A DNA stretch of 64,000 nucleotides, from NCBI GenBank assembly GCA_963751345.1, contig CAVVUS010000024.1, positions 103,918-167,917 of the forward strand, in the 5' to 3' direction. This DNA is from an uncultured Chloroflexia bacterium (GTDB lineage: Bacteria; Chloroflexota; Anaerolineae; B4-G1; SLSP01). Under the pieces are notes generated by a model. It was given only the letters and a program-made list of their open reading frames with translations, did no database searches and had not been told where the DNA came from. Each line of letters starts with the position of its first letter. The stretch's first letter is position 1. A program made the translations under genes and the position numbers. Shown here piece by piece: positions 11,914-23,800 of this stretch.

Positions 11914-12784
11914 GGGAACATCTCCTTGCGCGTGTCCCTGATATAGGACAGCGTCTCACGCAGCGCGGCTTCATCTCCATCCTCAACCAACTGGATAAGA
12001 CGTCCCAACTCGGCGGCGCAATGTCGCGCGGCCTTCACGACCTCGTCGCGGTTTGTCGTGAGGATATCGACCATCATCGTGACGTCGCTGCCTGCCACGC
12101 GCGACGTGTCGCGATACCCCCCTGCGACGATCTGCCAGGCCAGGGGATCGGTCGATGTTGTGGCATCCGCCGTGCTCACGAGCGCGCAGGCAAGTAGGTA
12201 GGGGAGATGGCTCACCGTACCCACGAGATAGTCCTGACGCTCGCCGTCGATGACCAGTGGGGTTGCTCCCGCGCTCCGCACCAGGGCTTCCCCCAGACTC
12301 AACGCTGCCTCCGACGTCCGAGGAAGCGGAGACAGGATGAACGTGCGGCTCTGAAAGAGCGTCGGATCCGCAGCTTCGATACCTGAGGTCTCCTTGCCAC
12401 ACATCGGGTGCCCACCCAGGGGCTGTACGTGATCGGGTAAGCCGTCATCGCCTCAAGAACCTTCTCCTTGGTGCTGCCCAGATCGAGAAGGAGCGAACCC
12501 TCTCGCAGCCACGGGCCTATCTCGCCCAGCAGCCTGATAATCGTGCGGACCGGCGTCGCCAGAATCGTAATATCGGCCTCCGCGACCCCTTCCTTCAGGT
12601 CCAGCACGCCACGATCGACAAAGCCCCGGCGCAAGGCGGCCTCCAGGGTCTCAGGGCTGCTGTCTACACCGATAACCTGTGCACAGTGACCACGCAGCGC
12701 GCCCGCCAAAGAGCCGCCCATCAAACCAAGGCCCACAACCGTGACCACAGACTGTGAAAGAGGTTTCATCTCCAACGACGCCAT
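11910..12784 (-). CDS. tyrA: Prephenate dehydrogenase, frameshift near 12440
   Basis: 'GLGLMGGS', 'DLGSTK' in one frame; 'GGHPMCGKE', 'SHLP', '[10 protein letters not shown]' in the next. Confidence 0.9.
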
Positions 12785-12797
12785 ATCTGTCGCCGCC

Positions 12798-13812
12798 CTA
12801 TATCTTTCGTCCGACAGCAGCGGCTATCGGCCGGAGCGAATCCATGAGTTCGGCGAAACGTTCCAGCTTGAGAGACTGCCCTCCGTCCGAGAGCGCCTCC
12901 TCTGGCCGCGGATGGACCTCGATAATCAGGCCATCCGCACCAGCCGCGATGGCTGCCCGCGCGACCGGACTTACCAACTCCCAGTGTCCGGTCCCGTGGC
13001 TCGGATCGACAAGGACGGGTAGATGGCTGAGCTGCTTAAGCAAAGGTATCGCACTGATGTCCAGCGTATTGCGTGTGTAGGGCTCAAAGGTCCGGATGCC
13101 TCGCTCGCAGAGAATCACGCGATTGTTGCCGTGTGACAGGATGTACTCCGCCGACATCAACAACTCCTCGATCGTCGACATCATGCCCCGCTTCAAGAGG
13201 ACGGGGCGCTGAGACTCACCCACGGCGTGCAACAGTGCATAGTTCTGCATACTCCGCGCGCCAATCTGCAGGATGTCGGCGTAGGTCGTGACCAGCGGCA
13301 CCTGTTCGGGAGACATCACCTCTGTCACTATCGGAAGGCCGGTAGCCTCTCTTGCCTCGGCGAGCAGCTTGAGTCCTGTTTCACCGAGACCCTGGAAACT
13401 GTAAGGAGATGTGCGAGGCTTGAACGCCCCCCCGCGTATTGCGTGAGCGCCGGCAGCCTTCACCGCTTCTGCGGTTTCCATGAGCTGGCTCGGCACTCTC
13501 GACAGCACAGGGACCAGCCATCACGATCACTTGCTCACCACCGATAGAAACGCCGTTGATCGGGAAAACGGAGTTCTGCGGATGGAATTCACGACTGGCC
13601 AACTTGAAGGGCCGCAGTACCGGAACGGTGCGCTCCACACCCGACATACGGTCGATCTGCTCGTGATCGATCGGGCGCCCATTGCCAATGACACCGATAA
13701 TCGTGCGCTCCTCGCCTTCGGAAAGATGGACCTGGCATCCCATCTGCTCCACGCGAGCCGAAACGTTGGCGATCTGTGCCGCCGTTGCTCCGTGCTTCAT
13801 AATGATAATCAT
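12798..13812 (-). CDS. aroF: DAHP synthase class I-beta with N-terminal regulatory domain, frameshift near 13490
   Basis: 'MIIIMK...RTIIGVIG...AGPCAVES' then '[15 protein letters not shown]', 'IGARSMQN', 'ERGIRTF', 'DPSH'. Confidence 0.93.
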
Positions 13813-15086: not shown

Positions 15087-15120
15087 AAAAAAGACGTGGA
15101 GCCGGTCGGCTCCACGTCTT
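15087..15120 (-). terminator. Attenuator terminator of the aro operon leader
   Basis: Minus strand aagacgtggagcc-gacc-ggctccacgtctt followed by more T: 13-bp perfect stem plus U-tract, about 22 nt before the aroH ATG. Confidence 0.9.
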
Positions 15121-15335: not shown

Positions 15336-15728
15336 TCACCCGCTAACGCGCTGCAGGGCCTCCAGCGCGGACGTCAGGGCATCACCCATTGTGCGCAACA
15401 TCGTTTCCCGCGTCTTCAGCGCTTGGGTGACCATCGACTGGTGAATGTCCCACACGGCGCGATCGACCTGATCGTTGTTGTCAACGGGCAGACAGACCGT
15501 CGTGTCGCAGTCGAAATCCACGCGCGTGTACGCCCGCAGTCGCAGTTTGTCGGCGAGCCCGGGATCCAAAAGGTTCAATCCACCATCTGCTAGCATCTTG
15601 ATCTGCGCGCTGGGCGTGGTGAAGGTCCGGACCTCCAACGTACTGATGTCGCTCACAAATGTCTCCGCCTTAGATGCCAGATCTTTGGTGAACTTCTCAA
15701 TTGCGTTTCTCAGATCGCTCTCAGCCAT
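15336..15728 (-). CDS. Hypothetical protein, stand-alone 'domain X' (130 aa)
   Basis: Strong RBS GAGGAGG; visibly homologous to the C-terminus of 16633-19090. Confidence 0.85.
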   Translation of the reverse strand: MAESDLRNAIEKFTKDLASKAETFVSDISTLEVRTFTTPSAQIKMLADGGLNLLDPGLADKLRLRAYTRVDFDCDTTVCLPVDNNDQVDRAVWDIHQSMVTQALKTRETMLRTMGDALTSALEALQRVSG

Positions 15729-15790
15729 TCCTATCCTCCTCATGGATCCTTCGAGAATACGTATGCATCCTCAAGGCAACGGATACCGCT

Positions 15791-16636
15791 CTAGCCGGTC
15801 AGCACACCATCCGGCAAGTGCTCGAACTCGGACAACACGTCGCGGACGTATTTGTACACCGCAGGAATTAACAATATCTGCCCTCCCGGCACGGATGCCT
15901 TGAGTGCCAGGTCTAGCGCCCCGGTGGTCACAACTGAGATCAGTCGCAGTAACGCTCGACGGGACGCCAACGCCAGCTTCACGTCTTCCAGATGGAGCGC
16001 CATATCGAGAGCCGTCAGCCCGATCGACCAAGCCGTCTCGTAATCGCCGGTCCAGTCCACGGTGGTGATCGCAATCAGCTTATCGTCGATCCGCGTCTCA
16101 ACACGGGCCCAATGCTCCACAAGCTGGCGGAGCTGCGTAAGAAGCGCGCTTGTCGCCTCGATCCGCCCGACCTGTAAGGCGAGCTGACCATACGGCTTCA
16201 CCTGTTGAGCCTCTCCAGAGAAGGCTGTCACGGACCCGGCCAGCGCGGTGACCTCGGCGAGCAGCTCACCATCGTGTCGCAGAACGACCTGTCCGCCGTA
16301 GGAGGCCACCGGGCTCAGAGCGCCCAGATGCTGCGAGATGAGGTCCAACTCCTTCATCCGTCGATCAACGATCGCCAGTTGATCGTGCAATACCCGCCGG
16401 GTCTCTCTTGTGGCAGCCGGATGGCGCACCCGCCACACCATCCCATCGAGAGGACCGTCAGCCGCGTAAGCTGCTGGCTCCTCGGGTACAAATGCCGTCC
16501 CGGGCGCGTCCGCCGTCCGAGGCGCGTCCGCCGTCTGAGACGCGTCCGCCGTCCCAGGCGCCAGGTCCCACACACCCAGTGGGTCCTGACCGTCAGGCAG
16601 CGCGAATCCCGACCAGTCGTACGTCGATGCACTCAT
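15791..16636 (-). CDS. Hypothetical protein with divergent domain X and hydrophobic C-terminal hairpin
   Basis: 281 aa; start overlaps the upstream stop (ATGA); 'IAITTVDWTGD...ALHLEDVKLALASRRALL' matches the domain X pattern. Confidence 0.8.
   Translation of the reverse strand: MSASTYDWSGFALPDGQDPLGVWDLAPGTADASQTADAPRTADAPGTAFVPEEPAAYAADGPLDGMVWRVRHPAATRETRRVLHDQLAIVDRRMKELDLISQHLGALSPVASYGGQVVLRHDGELLAEVTALAGSVTAFSGEAQQVKPYGQLALQVGRIEATSALLTQLRQLVEHWARVETRIDDKLIAITTVDWTGDYETAWSIGLTALDMALHLEDVKLALASRRALLRLISVVTTGALDLALKASVPGGQILLIPAVYKYVRDVLSEFEHLPDGVLTG
16503..16556 (-). repeat. 3 x 18-bp in-frame tandem repeat (TADAxx)
   Basis: ggcgcgtccgccgtccga / ggcgcgtccgccgtctga / gacgcgtccgccgtccca. 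Confidence 0.85.
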
Positions 16637-19090
16637 GCCGAACCGATCTTCAGACTATCGAGGAGACGCGTCGCGAGTTCCGCCATCGTAGCCAAGAACT
16701 TAGATCGGCTGTCCTGGGCCTCCTCAACCATCGATTTGTGGATCTCCCATAGAGCGATATCGACCTCGCGGTCGCTGTTCTCGGGCACGTAGACCTCAAG
16801 GTCGCCGTCAAATGCCACCCGCGTGAGCGCGCGAAGCGTAGCAGGGTAATCCGCATGCGTCTCCAGGGCTGCCGCTACCCGTTCGATATCGTCGGTCGAG
16901 TAGGTTTTGACATCCAACGTCACAATATCCTCGGCTGCGTGACCCAGCGAAGTCGCCAACTGATCGGTAAAGGCACGCAGCGAATCCCTCAGCCTCTCAA
17001 ACTGATCCGCCAACCCAAAGGCCACAGCGACCTCAGCGTCGGACATCGCCGCGATCCCCGACACGGAAGGGCCAGGCTCCCGCGACTTGGGCTTGAGTTC
17101 AGCCTCCGCCCATGGTCGAGCGGCGCGGTCCACAGGCGCCGTCACGATAGGAACCTGGCCTTGCTCACTAACCGACGTCTCCATAGCTTCAGGAGCGTAG
17201 ACTTCAGCTTCCGATGGCTCAGCCGCGGGGATCGGGGGCGGCACGGGATAAGCCGCGTCTTGAGTCACCAGCTCCGGCACTACGAGAGATGGACCGCCCT
17301 GGAACTCCTCCGTCGAGGTGGCTGTCTCTTCCTCCTCGGGAGACACCGGCTGCTCCCGGCTCACTTGCTCCTCCGCTCCCTCGACTTCCGGCTCCACCGG
17401 CTCCTCGTCCTCAGCGGGCACCTCCGGGTGCCTCGGGTTCAGGCACCGTGATCGTGCCGGCGTCGGGACCCTCCTCAGACGGCGGTTCGGGAGGCGCAAA
17501 GGGAATGCGTGCCGCCGGGTCTCCTATGACCACATAGCTTCGGGCATCGTTGTTGGCCGTCCATCGATTGGCAAGCTCATAGTCGTCCATATAGCCGGGA
17601 TCCCACTTTAGCTCCTCGAGATCAGCACTCAGATCGGAGCTCAACTCGGCGTAGCGCATATCGAAACTGGTGTCGGTCGCGAGCCCGACCGGCTCGCCGT
17701 TCATCAGCATGCGCATCGCGGTGACAAACGACTGGTTTGTCATGCGCCCGGTTGGGGAGATGAAAGAGTAACCCCACGCCCGCTCCACGTGCCCCAGCAC
17801 GGCCAAGGCGCCCTGTCTGAGCATCTGCTGCGGTAGTGCAGCCGTGAACCCCCGCGGGGCAATCTTCTCCCTTACCTTGAAGGCCTGCGCTGCGAACTGA
17901 TCTAGTTGCGGCGTACCCGCGCCATAGCAGGCGAAGAAGAACGCCATCATGCCCAACAAGTCAGCATCTTCGGCGATGTCCTCGCCGGCGAAGTAGTAGT
18001 CTCTCAGGACGTCTCGACCAACACCCGGCCAATCCTGGCACAACAAAGCGCCCTGTTGCCGCAACTGTGCCGGATGTCCGGCAGGAAACTCAATCCCGTG
18101 GCTGGCACTGAAGAGCAGCGCCGGCGTCTGCGCAGGGTCACCGCCAAGGAGCTGTGTGAGTTGGTCGTGTGTGGCCAGGCCCTCACCCATATAGGGCGGG
18201 TGGATATCCCAATCATCCACCAACCCAAGCTCGAAATCCCGGGCCGCTATCGTGAGATTCTCGTACAGGGGCTGGACCAGATACTGCGAACTCAACTTGG
18301 TCGCCTTGTCCCCCGGATTCTCCGGGGCGAAGAAGGCAGCGCGCCTCGGGAGGGCGATCTGTCCCGTCTCACACGCGACGACGTTCTGCGCATACCGGGC
18401 ATACGCCTCGATGTCGGTCCCGAAATCCAGGCGGCCCACCCCACGCATCACGTCGATTTGGTACTGGAAACGGTAGGGTATCTCCTCGGGCGTGCCGATC
18501 AGGAGCACGTAGAATGGCATCTCCTGGGGGTCGACCAGTCCCGGCCCGACGCCGAGACGCTCGAACACCTGATCCTTACGCTCGCCGGCCCGGTACGCGT
18601 CCCCCCCCTCGTACATGCGAAAGAGATCCCCAGCCTGTTCATGTCGCAGGTCTAGCAGCGGCTGAAGCGCATCCTTGATCTCCTCCCGCACCCGCGGGTG
18701 CATGTCGGCGGGGAACATCACGGCCCACCCCACATCCTCCACGCGCGAGGGATCACCGGCCCCGGGCTTGACCGGATAGGGCGTGCGTGTCGCCGCCTTG
18801 AATCTCAGTTCCTCAAGGCGGACGGCGTCGTGCGACTCCTCAAGTGCAGACTGGACATCTGTGACCCGGGTCAGACGGTCCTCGAGGCCGGTGAGCTCTG
18901 CAAGCTGCCGCTGTCGATCGACGAATTCGCGGTAGTCCTGAGGAATAGGCTTCCCCTGGATGAGCCGCGCCAACTGCTGCGGTGAAAGCGGTGGCTGTCC
19001 ATAGTTGCCAGTGACAGCATTGATCCCGTTGAAGACCAAGCGAGAGGGCTCGTCATCCTCTTCAGGAAGCGCTCTCAACTTATCGGCCAT
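16633..19090 (-). CDS. Gingipain/C25-like (clan CD) cysteine protease + acidic Pro-rich linker + domain X (~818 aa after correcting an extra base near 17425)
   Basis: 'YVLLIG.PEEIP...DV..GVGRL', 'LLFSASHG' (His 18098-18100), 'FFFACYGAG' (Cys 17927-17929), 'YVVIGDP'. 'VPEPEAP' continues as 'EVPAEDEE' in the adjacent frame. Confidence 0.75.
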
Positions 19091-19125
19091 GTTCAGTCTC
19101 CTTTCGACCGGAGCTAACCATCAGG

Positions 19126-21391
19126 TTACGCCTGTTCCGTCGTACTACCGAGGCGGACCACAGGGACGCCACGAAGGCGTACCGCTGGGTCACCGACGAC
19201 AATGTAGCCTCGGGCGTCGTTGTTTGCCGTCCACAGCTCGGCGAGCCTGATACACATCCTCCACCGATGGGGGATCCCCAATCTGATCGTAGAGATAGGT
19301 CAGCTCGGTGGCAATCGCAGCATAGCGCATATTCATGAAATCCAGCGCAGACCCTACCGGGTGGCCGGCAAGCAGTCGTTCGATCACACTCGCAAAGACC
19401 TCAACGTGCTCACGCTTCCGGCCTTCCATCCCCCCGGGCCGGCTGGTGACATCAGTGAGGAAGGAGAGACCCCAGGCGCGCTCCACGTGCCCGATCACGG
19501 CCAATGCCCCGTGGTCCTTGAGTGCCAGTATCGCCTTCGGAAGCGCCGCAACGAATGGGTTCTCGGCAATCGACGTCGCCCGCTCCTTGAACTCAGCTCG
19601 GTGATAGGCATCAGTCTGCGGGGTGCCCGCACCGAAGCACGCAAAGAAGAAGAGGATCATTCCCCTGAGGTTGACAGCTTCGGTGACGTCCGATGCCGAA
19701 AGGTAGGCCTCCGGCGGGACGTAGCCCTTGCGGCCACTCCAGTTTTGGCAGAGAAGCGATCCCTGCAGATTCCGCTGTCGTGGATCATCCGGCGCAAACT
19801 CCAAGCCGTGCGTCGCCGTAAAAAGCAGCGCCGGCGGGGGCGTCAACTGGAGGATCTTCAGGAGGTTCGCCTTCGTCGCCTTGGCCGGGGCAATTCGTAG
19901 GATCTGCCAAGGGGACCCCACTGCCCTTGCCCTGAAATGCTGAGCAAGCGGCGCAATCAGATGGTCGGACGTCAGCGCCGTGGCCTCATCTCCAGGGTGT
20001 TCCGTCCCAAAGAAGACGACCTGGGAGTTAGGTGTCGCTGCCGCCGCTGATTCCTCCTCAACAGATACAACGTTCAGCGCATAGTTCCGGTAAGCCGTCA
20101 GATCATCGCCAAAATCCAGACGGCCTACCGCGTATTGAACGTCCAATTGGTACTGGAAGCTGAACGGGATGTCGTTTGGGTCGCCCACCAGCAACAAATA
20201 GTAGGGGACGCCTGTGGCGCGTGGATCTGCCGGGTTTGCCGCGTCGGCATTGCGTGGTGGGCGCCTCAGAAACATGCTGGCAGTATCACCGGAACGGTAG
20301 CCGTGCCGTCCCGCATAAACGCGGTAGAGGACACCGGCCTGGCGCTGGCGCAACGCCAAGAGCGGAGCCAGGGCCTTCTGGATGATCTGGCAGTGATCCT
20401 CCGGCATCGAGGCAGAGAAAACGATGCCCCAGCCGGTCTGCCCGATCTGCATAGGATCCACCCAGGGGACCGTGCCCAACTGCCCGGTCACGCTGCGCCT
20501 CAGCTCGTCGAGCCACGCACGCATCGCATCGATAAAGTCGGACTGGCGTAGAGGCTGCCTGGCGCGTCGAAGCGCCGTTAACACGCTGCGGAGCCCGGCG
20601 ACGATCTCGTGCCACGAGTCGAACGCATCCGCCCTCGACAGCGCCGCCAGCCGCTCGCGCGGTTCGGACGCCGAGGGCCGTCCCTCGCTCCGCAGACCCC
20701 CAAGCGTTCCGAGCACATAGACCAACATCCGGAGCGGCCCGGCAATTGCATCGGTGCCCGGCAAGACCTTGAGGGACTCCACCGGCAGCTCGTCCAGGGC
20801 CCAACAGAACTCGTCGATCCACGGCGAACGCAGGACGCCCTGCTTGTCCAGAGGACCTGTCGCACCCTCGCTTAGGTACGTCTTCCGAACCGCGGCCAAT
20901 GCCTGATCAAATCGCGATTCGAGCGTGCTGCGGAGCGTCGCCGAATTGGCATTCTCCTGGTCAAGCAACCATTGTGCGAGCGCAGCACCCTGCCCTCCAT
21001 TGAGCAACCTGACGATGCGGACGAGGGTGTCCACCGGCTCTTGCTTGAGCTTGCTTGCCAGCACAGCGACATCCCCGGCGAGGGGTTTGCCCTGCCCGCC
21101 TAAGAGGATCGACAAAAGACGGTGGGCACTGTCTACGTACCAGACATTGCGCGGGCGAAGCTGCCCGCCCAGTAACTTGAGAATATCCTGTGCCAGGAAC
21201 TCGACAATTGAGAGGATCTTCCGCTCGCTAGTCGCCCGAACCATCAGTTCCCGCTGCAACTCACGAAGCTGGCGGGCGGTGTCATAGCGGTCGGTCAAGA
21301 CGTGATCGGCGAGGGTCTCGACCGTCATAGGCTGGAGCCCATACGCGCCTGTCACGCCGTTGACGCCGTTGAAGTAGAGTTTCTCGGTCAC
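19126..21391 (-). CDS. Second gingipain/C25-like cysteine protease with a large helical N-terminal insert, frameshift near 19246
   Basis: GTG start with RBS; '[12 protein letters not shown]...AVGRL', 'LLFTATHG', 'FFFACFGAG', 'GHVERAWG'. Corrected end '[24 protein letters not shown]...QA*' (TAA 19126-19128). Confidence 0.78.
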
Positions 21392-21540: not shown

Positions 21541-21569
21541 AGTATAGCACACCAATCATACCAACGCAA
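21541..21569 (-). promoter_or_regulatory. Putative promoter of the protease operon
   Basis: TTGCGT-N17-TATACT with extended -10 TG. Confidence 0.55.
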
Positions 21570-21754: not shown

Positions 21755-23800
21755 ATGAAGAGCGAGTTCGCCCTAGCCTTTAACCAGATCTGTGCTGAAT
21801 ACAGCTTGCCAAGAGAGGTTGTGCTGGACGCAGTCCGCGCCGCCTTGGCGACCGCGTTCCGGCGTGACTGGAAGGTTCCGGCCACGCAAAACGTGTCCGC
21901 AGAGATCAACCTGGAGACAGGGTTAGCGCGTATCTACATAGAGCGAACGGCGGTTGAGGAAGTAGTAGATCCTGACATCGAGATCCCGCTCAAAGAAGCT
22001 CGCCGCAAGAAGGCCAATGTGCAGTTGGGTGACATCGTGTTGGTTGACGTCACACCCCAAGATTTTGGTCGTATTGCCGCGCAGACCGCAAAGCAGGTTA
22101 TTACGCAGCGTCTGCGGGAAGCGGAACGTGAAAGCCAGTTCAACCGATTCAGCCGGCAGGAAAACGAGATCATCATCGGCACCGTCCAGTCGGTCAACCC
22201 GCATGGCGTGACCCTGCATCTGGAGCGGACGGAAGAGGCCCACATGCCGAGGCGCGAGCAGATTCCGGGAGAACGTTACGTTCTGCACCAGAAGATCCGC
22301 GTCTACGTGCTGGAGGTTCGTCGAACTTCTCGGGGCCCGGAGATCATCGTCAGTCGCAGCCATCCGCTGATGCTGCGAAGGCTGCTGGAACTCGAGGTGC
22401 CTGAGATCCGCAATGGGCAGGTGGAGATCAACGCAGTTGCCCGAGAGGCCGGCACCCGAGCGAAAGTTGCGGTTTCGGCCCGACAGGCGGGTATCGACCC
22501 GGTCGGTTCCTGCGTGGGGATGAGGGGGATCCGCATCCAGACGATATCCCGCGAATTGCACGGGGAACGCGTCGACGTCGTCGAGTGGAGTGAAGATCCC
22601 GAGCACTTCATCACCAATGCATTGAGCGTTCCCGCTATCGTCTGTGTCACGCTGGACGAGAACAACCCCGGGGGCCGAACAGCCTCCGTCGTCGTGATGG
22701 ATGACCAGCTTTCGCTGGCGATTGGGCGTTCAGGGCAAAACGCGCGACTCGCCGCCAAGTTAACGAATTGGCGGATTGATATCCAGGGCGGTACGGAAGC
22801 CGCCATCTGGGCACTGGAGCAGGTGAACCATACACCCGAGCTGTTGGATGCGTTGAAGGGTGAGGCGACCCTAATCCCACGTCTGGCTACGATTATGCGG
22901 ACGCACGAAGAGGATCAATATCCGTATACCGACGAGGAACGGCACATCATCGGGTCCGTTGTCAAGGCGGTACGGCAGGCGATCATCGCGCGCCGAGAGG
23001 CCGAACGGCCCGGATCAGTCCAGACGCGGGCACGGCAGCATGCCCAACGCAGGGCCGAAGCGGAACGCGTCAAGGCCACAGAAGTAGCTCATGCACGGGT
23101 ACCAAGAGGTGCCTACAAGGTACCTCTCAGCGATCTTGAGTTGTCCAAGAAAGTCTATACGCACCTCATCACGAATGGCCTCAAGAATGTGGGCGAGGTG
23201 ATGGAGAGAATGGCTGTCGGCGACGAGGCCCTGCTGATGCTTAACGGCGTCGGCGTAAAGGCACTTCGGGAGATCAAGCAAGCCGTTGATGAGAGTGGGC
23301 TCGGTCTGCTGGATCAAGAAGAGCCCGAGGGTGACGGAGCCGCCGTAGCCGAGGCCTTCGCAGACGAAGGCCTCGCAGACGAAGCGGGAACAGACGACGG
23401 TCTTGCGGAGAGCAGCGAAGAAGCGGAAGCTCCATCCGAGGAAGCCGAGACGGCGGAACCGGAGGTGGGAGCGGAGACACAGATCGTTGAAGAAGCTGCC
23501 GAGCCGGTCGATGGAGCCGCGAGCGCGGAGTCCGATGAAAAGGTGTTGGAGGAGGAGGCTACGCCGGCTGTTGAGGCGTCTCCTGAGCTTGCTGAGATCG
23601 CGGCGAACCTTGAGGGGGTCCTCTTCGAGGAACCTGAGGATGAGGAACTTGAGGAAACCAGCCCATCCGGTAGGACACGGAAGGGGCGAAAACGCCGTCG
23701 CACCGTGGTGTATGATGACGCTACCGGCGAGACTTTCGTCATGCGAAAGCATCGCAGCCGCACCACAGACTCGTGGGACGAATACAGCGAAGATTTTTAG
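21755..23800 (+). CDS. nusA: Transcription factor NusA with C-terminal extension
   Basis: 'FGRIAAQTAKQVI.QRLREAER', S1 and KH domains, 'LSLAIGRSGQNARLAAKLT'. Confidence 0.97.
   Translation: MKSEFALAFNQICAEYSLPREVVLDAVRAALATAFRRDWKVPATQNVSAEINLETGLARIYIERTAVEEVVDPDIEIPLKEARRKKANVQLGDIVLVDVTPQDFGRIAAQTAKQVITQRLREAERESQFNRFSRQENEIIIGTVQSVNPHGVTLHLERTEEAHMPRREQIPGERYVLHQKIRVYVLEVRRTSRGPEIIVSRSHPLMLRRLLELEVPEIRNGQVEINAVAREAGTRAKVAVSARQAGIDPVGSCVGMRGIRIQTISRELHGERVDVVEWSEDPEHFITNALSVPAIVCVTLDENNPGGRTASVVVMDDQLSLAIGRSGQNARLAAKLTNWRIDIQGGTEAAIWALEQVNHTPELLDALKGEATLIPRLATIMRTHEEDQYPYTDEERHIIGSVVKAVRQAIIARREAERPGSVQTRARQHAQRRAEAERVKATEVAHARVPRGAYKVPLSDLELSKKVYTHLITNGLKNVGEVMERMAVGDEALLMLNGVGVKALREIKQAVDESGLGLLDQEEPEGDGAAVAEAFADEGLADEAGTDDGLAESSEEAEAPSEEAETAEPEVGAETQIVEEAAEPVDGAASAESDEKVLEEEATPAVEASPELAEIAANLEGVLFEEPEDEELEETSPSGRTRKGRKRRRTVVYDDATGETFVMRKHRSRTTDSWDEYSEDF

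Follow-up and report, generated by a model that had tools for sequence, protein, structure and literature searches.

A predicted gingipain-fold protease pair and an associated shared domain as a candidate effector arm of NLR-like conflict systems

Introduction

Cell death and immunity are repeatedly switched by proteases of clan CD, among them the caspases, CHAT proteins and separase, in organisms that range from bacteria to animals. Bacterial gasdermins are immune effectors activated by an associated protease, and in such effectors a clan CD protease is the switch of the immune or cell-death response. Gingipains, which also belong to clan CD, are to our knowledge known solely as secreted virulence enzymes. 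What, then, would a pair of gingipain-like proteases do inside a bacterial cell? This question is raised by positions 15336 to 21391 of a 64,000-nucleotide (nt) stretch of contig CAVVUS010000024.1 (assembly GCA_963751345.1), from an uncultured bacterium of filamentous type, which we call the window and in whose coordinates all positions are given. The region encodes two paralogous proteases, P1 and P2, a protein of no recognised family, g4, and a small protein, g5. P2 ends in a domain, here named X, that makes up the whole of g5 and has a counterpart in the core of g4. An earlier note on this DNA had proposed that these genes, which we call the module, form a self-contained proteolytic switch that matches no named system.

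We conclude, with a probability of about 0.55, that the module is a new gingipain-fold effector arm of nucleotide-binding leucine-rich-repeat (NLR)-like conflict or cell-death systems and that it has been orphaned in the genus of the window; how it would work, we infer. What carries this reading is what we observed of the fold, the conserved catalytic dyad, the shared domain, the linkage of the genes, the STAND and CHAT genes so often beside them, and the loss of the STAND partner in this genus.

Fold and conserved dyad of the proteases

The AlphaFold model of P2 had a predicted local distance difference test score (pLDDT) of 92.4 and a predicted template modelling score (pTM) of 0.91. When it was searched with Foldseek, the top matches were the Porphyromonas gingivalis gingipains Kgp and RgpB (E values of 1.2e-6 to 8.8e-6), followed by separase and CHAT proteins. 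The earlier note had suggested a comparison of this kind, and RgpB ranked above the CHAT proteins in it. Alignment with VIA-align gave Z scores of 23.5 (4ief_D; 304 residues aligned, root-mean-square deviation 3.2) and 23.0 (1cvr) for RgpB and of 21.7 (4rbm) and 21.6 for Kgp, against at most 14.8 for the other clan CD folds, separase and CHAT. The model therefore has the same two-subdomain catalytic fold as the gingipains (MEROPS family C25, clan CD; 1cvr, 4ief, 4rbm, 6i9a), at Z 21.6-23.5 over 304-330 residues. In the alignment with 1cvr, model residues 103-534 fall on chain residues 1-352, that is, on the catalytic domain only.

As in the gingipains, a His (H-G) follows one strand and a Cys (A-C) follows the next hydrophobic strand. 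The P2 residues H331, G332, A387 and C388 are invariant in 72/72 aligned homologues, six P1-type sequences among them, and P2 further contains the motifs VLLIGT..IP and VGRLDF. Both paralogues keep the T/S-H-G and F-A-C motifs, with H528/C585 in P1 and H331/C388 in P2. These results bear out two statements of the earlier note, namely that the proteases have a clan CD fold with a conserved His/Cys pair and that both paralogues retain the motifs.

In contrast to the agreement in fold, sequence identity to the gingipains is merely 12-14%. The gingipain model PF01364 is reached by 28 of the 72 homologues at E <= 0.01 (best E 4.4e-9), whereas neither window protease matched it at E <= 0.1. A PDB sequence search found no chain, either with P2 alone or with the 72-sequence profile (profile E <= 10). 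Searches of the five open reading frames (ORFs) of the window region against Pfam, NCBIfam and PADLOC gave nothing above noise, and in these libraries the module proteins match no named system, as had been claimed. The family is large: 3525 homologues were found at E <= 0.001 among 8000 candidates scored.

P1 is 39% identical to P2 in the alignment and 42% identical in the genome search, and on the strength of this identity we predict that P1 has the gingipain fold as well. Both proteins begin with an FNG.NG.TG.Y motif that is followed by an insert of variable length, which is helical in the P2 model. In P1, the insert comprises ~320 amino acids (aa) between the FNGVNG motif and the catalytic domain and matches nothing; by analogy with the shorter insert of the P2 model, it may be helical too. 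Together with the C-terminal linker and domain X, the N-terminal motif and insert set the module proteases apart from the gingipains. In a FastTree tree of 110 rows, the P1-type sequences formed one clade of 25 rows with a local support of 96. A short IQ-TREE search over 105 rows, which left out split-domain duplicates and one long-branch row, gave a P1-type clade of 22 rows with a value of 90 in the Shimodaira-Hasegawa-like approximate likelihood ratio test (SH-aLRT). Because the P1-type sequences lie on one side of a branch in both trees, the tandem duplication that gave rise to P1 and P2 in Anaerolineae is old.

Neither N-terminus shows a hydrophobic signal-like stretch when judged by eye, in agreement with the earlier note, and both proteases look cytoplasmic. 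Given that RgpB and Kgp are the closest solved structures, P1 and P2 might be taken for secreted nutritional or virulence-type gingipains as in Porphyromonas. We consider this extremely improbable. Besides the N-termini, what speaks against secretion is that the gingipain prodomain, immunoglobulin-like domain and C-terminal sorting domain found no counterpart in the alignment, which covers the catalytic domain alone, and that the module proteases, unlike gingipains, are tandem paralogues linked to genes for cytoplasmic STAND, CHAT and SIR2 proteins.

Domain X and its carriers

Alignment of 46 copies of X, of which 30 are free-standing and 16 are protease C-termini, defined a domain of ~115 residues, non-catalytic and of alpha/beta type, with an invariant Thr and the pattern His-x3-Val-x6-Arg. 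In the model of g5 (pLDDT 90.4), X consists of a long helix, a three-stranded sheet and a second long helix. The X of P2 matches g5 by tblastn at E values of 1e-10 to 1e-18 across loci, and comparison of X with g4 by hhalign gave a probability of 92.2% (E 5.9e-7), with the same His-x3-Val-x6-Arg spacing. Three products of the module thus carry one unnamed domain, as the earlier note had seen, with the copy in g4 best described as an X-like core.

A Foldseek search of the PDB with X gave a best E value of 0.64, and a search of a viral structure library gave 0.26. With VIA-align against 48,161 chains the best Z score was 7.4, and all matches were helical-hairpin background. These searches, which start from a predicted model, name no known fold for X; that the fold is novel does not follow from them. 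X had no match in Pfam, models of effector-associated domains (EADs) included. A protein atlas placed g5 (0.88) and g4 (0.78) near unnamed clusters, in both cases below the level that counts.

The X profile reached 1024 cluster representatives at E <= 0.001 among 1.84 billion. Among the 150 X proteins listed, the domain is C-terminal or free-standing in all save P0127 and P0249 (284 aa, match at 121-219). When 13 longer or mid-sized X proteins were scanned, six gave C25-like matches, six had no Pfam match, and one was P0127. This last protein, a metagenomic prediction of 2675 aa, combines Trypsin_2, nSTAND1, four tandem X cores (residues 1000-1327) and WD40 repeats. It is the sole listed case of X inside a STAND protein, a second P-loop-like motif lies in between, and its gene call is taken as predicted. 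In the genome of the window, we found just two copies of X, both in this operon.

The g4 family (37 aligned sequences; 34 homologues by word search, all unnamed) has a DPLG.W motif at the N-terminus. Motifs of the form hydrophobic-[SA]-[FY]-[GDAST] recur in it, at 1.92 per protein compared to 0.46 in shuffled sequences. In the C-terminal part, at ~aa 228-265, a PGG turn joins a conserved hydrophobic helix to another helix. The maximal Kyte-Doolittle hydropathy over 19 residues is at least 1.6 in 23 of the 37 proteins (median 1.73); the window copy reaches 1.4. A Pfam search of g4 found neither a gasdermin nor a holin nor any other family.

We also observed that X of P2-type proteins starts at a strongly conserved junction, AVAFGL.DQF (window 16990-17050), and that the N-terminal half of g4 contains up to three hydrophobic-[SA]-[FY]-[GD] motifs akin to it. 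The junction and the g4 motifs could be docking or cleavage sites.

Linkage to STAND, CHAT and SIR2 genes

To place the module among its relatives, one genome per species was scanned. Out of at least 607 pattern matches, 415 could be confirmed, and the analysis continued with the 80 best loci. These are not a random sample, the related genomes are not independent, and the counts that follow describe linkage with no statistical test attached. X was present in 57/80 loci, in 41 of them on at least two ORFs; g4 was present in 47 and a second protease in 28. Alongside these, 40 of the 80 loci encode a CHAT domain, 40 encode nSTAND1 and 23 encode SIR2, with CHAT or STAND in 45. Pfam assigns CHAT + SIR2_2 to one partner, of ~700 aa, and nSTAND1 + WD40 to the other, of 1200-2000 aa; cyanobacterial STAND proteins have the CHAT domain fused at their front. 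PADLOC gave domain-level matches only for these partners (ThsA-type SIR2 and SAVED_CHAT). The module is therefore not self-contained in general: a CHAT(-SIR2) protein, an nSTAND1-WD40 protein or both stand beside it in 45/80 loci, and it is alone only in the genus of the window. By their record titles, the 80 loci, picked by similarity, come mostly from Anaerolineae, Chloroflexia and filamentous cyanobacteria.

Peptidoglycan hydrolases adjoin the module in at least seven loci. Genes for M23 + SH3 proteins are directly adjacent and co-oriented in L018 (11494-12759), L054 (11626-14544), L066 (3507-4331) and L067 (11151-14108), and the same holds for (N-acetyl)muramidase genes in L035 (4960-7392), L040 (5886-7925) and L052 (5170-7965). 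A C39-like + SH3 protein is encoded in L076, and an SH3 protein in L047. In the four M23 proteins, as in phage endolysins, the sequence starts with the catalytic domain and no signal-like stretch precedes it; the printed N-termini of the L040 and L052 hydrolases also show no signal-like stretch.

Distribution in the order and loss of the STAND partner in the genus

In the 145 genomes of the order, which include 22 of the genus (that of the window among them), the protease was found in 67, with 53/70, 12/48 and 1/26 in the families. Within the genus it is present in 22/22 genomes, with two copies in 21 and three matches in one. g4 was found in 57/145 genomes. Every one of these 57 carries the protease too, and g4 was absent from all 78 genomes that have no protease (lists compared by hand), so that the co-occurrence anticipated in the earlier note was in fact observed.

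An orthologue of the STAND protein (E <= 1e-30) was present in 42 genomes: 37 of the 45 outside the genus that have the protease, 5 of the 78 that do not have it, and 0/22 in the genus, where five genomes gave weak matches (24-34% identity) to other STANDs. The STAND partner has been lost in this genus while the module has been kept throughout. Searching the genome of the window for STAND genes returned only P-loop-level matches to PF20703 and a WD40-only match. Beyond the Anaerolineae, the protease family occurs in Cyanobacteriota, Acidobacteriota, Planctomycetota and other groups, a spread across phyla that suggests horizontal transfer.

A CHAT gene does exist elsewhere in the genome of the window, at C22:107127-108173 (L090 1507-3270, minus strand), where the match to a 587-aa ORF spans one TAG. 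This ORF shares 50% identity with the CHAT portion of the relatives' CHAT-SIR2 partner and adjoins an ORF for a PQQ-like beta-propeller. It has no SIR2 domain, and no SIR2 or STAND gene was found in the 4 kb around it.

Frameshifts in P1 and P2

In the window, P2 and its X domain are read from two ORFs, 17411-19090 and 16633-17499, which are the second and third of the region. In relatives they form a single protein. The nearest homologue, P0002 (818 aa, 94% identical), spans the protease, a Pro/Glu/Ala-rich linker and the domain of the third ORF, and the P2 gene is an open frame of 711-855 aa in all 21 other genomes of the genus. From these intact fusions, we deduced a frame change (-1/-2) near 17425 in the window. 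Similarly, the conserved C-terminus of P1 is read in another frame, 19126-19239, after a 1-nt shift near 19240-19248. We compared four public sequencing runs, whose contig cover was patchy (the best contained at most 0.21 of the sampled words). A 250-nt contig of run X2, which is ~97.6% identical, leaves out one base at 19248, the P1 site; no contig from the four runs reaches the P2 site at ~17425.

Comparison with syntenic relatives shows two nearby housekeeping genes to be split as well: those for DAHP synthase (shift near 13488; window region 13480-13500) and prephenate dehydrogenase (near 12437; 12410-12770). Four frame shifts within ~12 kb, or about ten genes, are the pattern of assembly indel errors. 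Given the like breaks in these two neighbouring genes and the base that is missing from the related contig at the P1 site, both frameshifts in the operon are probably assembly errors. If they were real, the locus would be a decaying remnant, with a P1 that has no last strand and a P2 that has no X domain. Both changes are indeed present in the assembly as given, and no compared run reaches the P2 site. Nevertheless, we regard a remnant as very unlikely, given the housekeeping genes within 8 kb that point to assembly indels, the P1 frame restored by the related contig, the downstream frames, which are all open and conserved, the 94% identity to P0002 across the fusion, and the intact fusion in all 21 other genomes of the genus.

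Proposed mechanism and alternatives

According to the reading that we prefer, the module would be the protease and effector arm of an nSTAND1-WD40 conflict or programmed-cell-death system in which a CHAT(-SIR2) protein takes part as well, with the proteases acting downstream of the STAND sensor. X would bind P2, g4 and g5 to one another and, in some lineages, to the STAND protein too; this proposed role of homotypic adaptor is modelled on that of the effector-associated domains described by Kaur et al. On a trigger, the peptidases would cut, and their own linker, which in P2-X is long, of low complexity and rich in Pro, Glu and Ala, and g4 would be the most likely first substrates. The output may be damage to the membrane or the cell wall. 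The genus of the window has neither STAND nor CHAT-SIR2 and keeps the module fixed in a housekeeping setting, for which reason we propose that there the module would answer to another trigger or act alone.

Several observations weigh against this reading. The genome of the window, which is 93% complete, has no nSTAND1 orthologue, and its CHAT is one unlinked gene on another contig. The module is flanked not by defence genes but by nusA-infB and an aromatic amino-acid cluster, and its place is syntenic in each of the 22 genomes of the genus, a constancy that is unusual for defence systems, which tend to be patchy. The defence-island setting that the earlier note had considered is thus not what the window shows, its flanks being housekeeping genes. 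Among the related loci, 35/80 have no CHAT or STAND in the available DNA; 16 of them come from near relatives of the window, and several consist of a short contig. The 80 loci are moreover the best of 415 confirmed matches, from genomes that are not independent. PADLOC-DB 2.0 gave no match for the window ORFs or for the L054 homologues of P2-X and g4, and no RNA data for the locus were found among the public runs.

One may ask whether the four genes need a sensor at all. They could be an autonomous programmed-lysis cassette in which g4 is a holin- or gasdermin-like effector, inactive until cut, whose membrane lesion lets signal-less peptidoglycan hydrolases reach the wall, for filament fragmentation or altruistic death. 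The hydrophobic helix-PGG-helix at the C-terminus of g4, with the hydropathy values given above, and the greater number of hydrophobic-[SA]-[FY]-[GDAST] motifs in it than in shuffled sequences would suit such an effector. So would the co-oriented M23 + SH3 or muramidase genes in seven loci (the four M23 proteins beginning at the catalytic domain) and the persistence of the module without STAND in 22/22 genomes of the genus. On the other hand, the window g4 has a hydropathy of just 1.4, with Arg, Asp and Lys in the segment; neither in the window nor in its near relatives does a peptidoglycan hydrolase adjoin the module; g4 matches no Pfam family, be it gasdermin, holin or any other; and the protein atlas was uninformative for it. 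We therefore view an autonomous cassette as possible and on balance unlikely. A more elaborate version, which we put forward as speculation and think doubtful, keeps the sensor: X would be a death-fold-like homotypic adaptor and g4 a protease-gated membrane effector, together an 'executioner' cassette that most lineages would keep under an Apaf-1-like nSTAND1-WD40/CHAT-SIR2 sensor. The proteases would cut the P2 linker and g4, the membrane would be breached, and signal-less wall hydrolases would gain access; in the genus, the cassette would have been uncoupled from its sensor and fixed as a programmed-lysis system of filamentous Anaerolineae.

The constancy of the module in the genus can also be read differently, namely as a domesticated housekeeping or developmental protease system for the regulated proteolysis or assembly of a cytoplasmic or membrane complex. 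Its presence in 22/22 genomes (two protease copies in 21, three matches in one), its constant synteny between nusA and chorismate mutase/prephenate dehydratase in the window and in L004-L010, L019 and L033, the lack of a STAND orthologue in the genus and the lack of a PADLOC match are what such a system would lead one to expect. However, in organisms outside the genus these genes occur in tight linkage with STAND, CHAT and SIR2, all of them hallmarks of conflict systems. On a wider scale, the distribution is patchy (53/70 in the family, 12/48 and 1/26 in the sister families), and the spread over Cyanobacteriota, Acidobacteriota and Planctomycetota suggests horizontal transfer. That the module of the genus is such a domesticated system, with no relation to conflict, seems to us rather improbable. 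For the genus itself, the autonomous cassette and the domesticated system may both be partly true. On balance, we favour the effector arm of an NLR-like system.

Relation to known systems

Conflict systems centred on STAND/NLR-like proteins, with caspase-like effectors and EADs, have been described in multicellular bacteria by Kaur et al. (PMC7159879, PMC8195603), and nSTAND1 was named in the second of these papers (eLife 2021, PMC8195603). There are several points of likeness. In the related loci, an nSTAND1 NTPase with WD40 repeats lies near a clan CD peptidase. In keeping with the EAD principle, one small domain is repeated on adjacent products (P2, g5 and the X-like core of g4), and one STAND protein, P0127, itself bears X. 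The taxa are mostly filamentous or multicellular (Anaerolineae, Chloroflexia, Nostocales and Oscillatoriales-type cyanobacteria), in loci that were chosen by similarity. In contrast to the systems of Kaur et al., the peptidase is gingipain-like and not a caspase or CHAT, X matches no Pfam EAD model, and the genus of the window has no STAND.

A further similar arrangement is the two-gene system of EACC1 and a caspase ('System 4' of Kaur et al. 2020), in which nSTAND1 is sometimes present. In both, a clan CD peptidase is accompanied by a small, constant partner protein whose conserved hydrophobic helix is rich in small residues. Unlike EACC1, a domain of ~107 positions, g4 has 250-290 aa with an X-like core and no Pfam match. 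A search of the genome of the window for EACC1 (PF19953) gave no match, and the same search matched none of 14 control genomes either.

Clan CD proteases also occur in Csx29, the TPR-CHAT protein of the type III-E CRISPR Craspase, and in SAVED-CHAT, which align to the P2 model with Z scores of 12-14.7 and 11.7, respectively. Unlike Craspase, SAVED-CHAT and gasdermin systems, the module has no CRISPR, SAVED or gasdermin component that we could see in the window or its relatives.

The terms 'gingipain' and 'C25' are absent from the main texts of PMC7159879 and PMC8195603 and from eight supplementary files of the latter. A limited search likewise found no mention of gingipain-like or C25 peptidases in such systems in PMC10907252, 10.64898/2026.01.04.697583, 10.1101/2025.09.30.679545 or full-text literature searches, with the main texts covered for the preprints and PMC7159879. 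The novelty asserted in the earlier note thus stands in part. The gingipain-fold protease pair, X and g4 were found in no searched library or paper, whereas a STAND-centred kind of system had already been described (Kaur et al. 2020, 2021). We conclude that the kind is known (STAND-centred, with a clan CD peptidase and adaptor domains, in multicellular bacteria) and that the intracellular gingipain-fold pair, X and g4 appear to be new.

What the locus reveals is a large and unnamed intracellular branch of the gingipain fold. Its homologues number in the thousands; most are in Anaerolineae, others in cyanobacteria, Acidobacteriota and Planctomycetota. The branch is associated with Apaf-1-like STAND-WD40 sensors and CHAT-SIR2 proteins and with a domain, X, that has no known relative. 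If our reading is correct, bacterial NLR-type immunity would gain a new class of protease and a new adaptor, in a compact four-gene set that can be tested in E. coli. The whole genus would then be a natural case of an effector arm outliving its sensor, which bears on how such systems become domesticated.

Layout of the operon and its surroundings

The region consists of five co-oriented ORFs on the minus strand, as seen in the ORF list and the sequence: 19190-21391 (733 aa), 17411-19090 (559 aa), 16633-17499 (288 aa), 15791-16636 (281 aa) and 15336-15743 (135 aa). Once both 1-nt shifts are read through, these become four genes, P1, P2-X, g4 and g5 (Table 1). The ORF list, the sequence and the relatives agree on the four co-oriented genes that the earlier note had obtained with two 1-nt corrections. 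Its ATGA overlap of the P2-X stop and the g4 start, at 16633-16636, follows from the ORF coordinates, and its short spacers were found as well (35 nt between P1 and P2, 47 nt between g4 and g5). The promoter that it had placed at 21541-21569 did not hold up, since TTGCGT-17-TATACT matches the consensus at 8/12 positions, under the scan threshold; the scan lists 21441-21413 (9/12) instead.

Table 1. Features of the protease operon in window coordinates
Feature	Position	Strand	Description
P1	19126-21391	-	Predicted gingipain-fold (C25-like, clan CD) cysteine peptidase paralogue; frames 19190-21391, then 19126-19239
P1 putative catalytic His528 (T-H-G)	19808-19810	-	Invariant alignment column
P1 putative catalytic Cys585 (F-A-C)	19637-19639	-	Invariant alignment column
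P2-X fusion	16633-19090	-	Gingipain-fold peptidase (aa 1-~535), Pro/Glu/Ala-rich linker, domain X
P2 putative catalytic His331 (S-H-G)	18098-18100	-	Invariant alignment column
P2 putative catalytic Cys388 (F-A-C)	17927-17929	-	Invariant alignment column
Domain X of P2 (C-terminal, ~115 aa)	16648-16998	-	X profile, independent E value (i-E-value) 1.5e-37, aa 168-284 of the 288-aa ORF
g4, 281 aa	15791-16636	-	Family not recognised; X-like core at aa 185-242 (15911-16084)
g5, 135 aa	15336-15743	-	Free-standing domain X; X profile; model pLDDT 90.4
Promoter-like site upstream of P1	21413-21441	-	TTGATG-17-CATAAT; 9/12 consensus match only
Likely operon terminator	15091-15120	-	13-bp hairpin + T-run, 216 nt downstream of the g5 stop

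The hairpin at 15091-15120 is terminator-like when read on either strand. In the window, nusA-infB lies on one side of the operon and on the other the aromatic amino-acid cluster, with genes for chorismate mutase, prephenate dehydratase, DAHP synthase, prephenate dehydrogenase, EPSP synthase and shikimate dehydrogenase. The gene order is the same in the close relatives L004-L010, L019 and L033.

In eight cyanobacterial loci (L056, L059, L068, L075, L077, L080, L081 and L083), a conserved ORF of ~450 aa lies just upstream of the protease. It was considered as a tandem protease paralogue and rejected, with an hhalign probability of 0.5 and no Pfam match. The proteases of these loci have a C-terminal tail of ~90 aa, in which the X profile does not detect X. 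In L056 (8001-9467; Scytonema sp. HK-05, a nearly complete genome), the protease homologue has one in-frame stop in the matched stretch. The small ORF clusters 8, 15, 24, 28 and 29, which overlap larger genes in other frames, were treated as spurious.

The GTG start listed for the chorismate mutase ORF (15115) falls inside the hairpin. Because the Pfam CM_1 match begins at residue 22, an ATG at ~15064 ('MVRCRGIRG...') is the likelier start. On the other side of the operon, NusA (21755-23800) has 681 aa; its Pfam NusA_N and KH matches stop by about residue 300, and its last ~150 residues form a highly acidic tail of low complexity.

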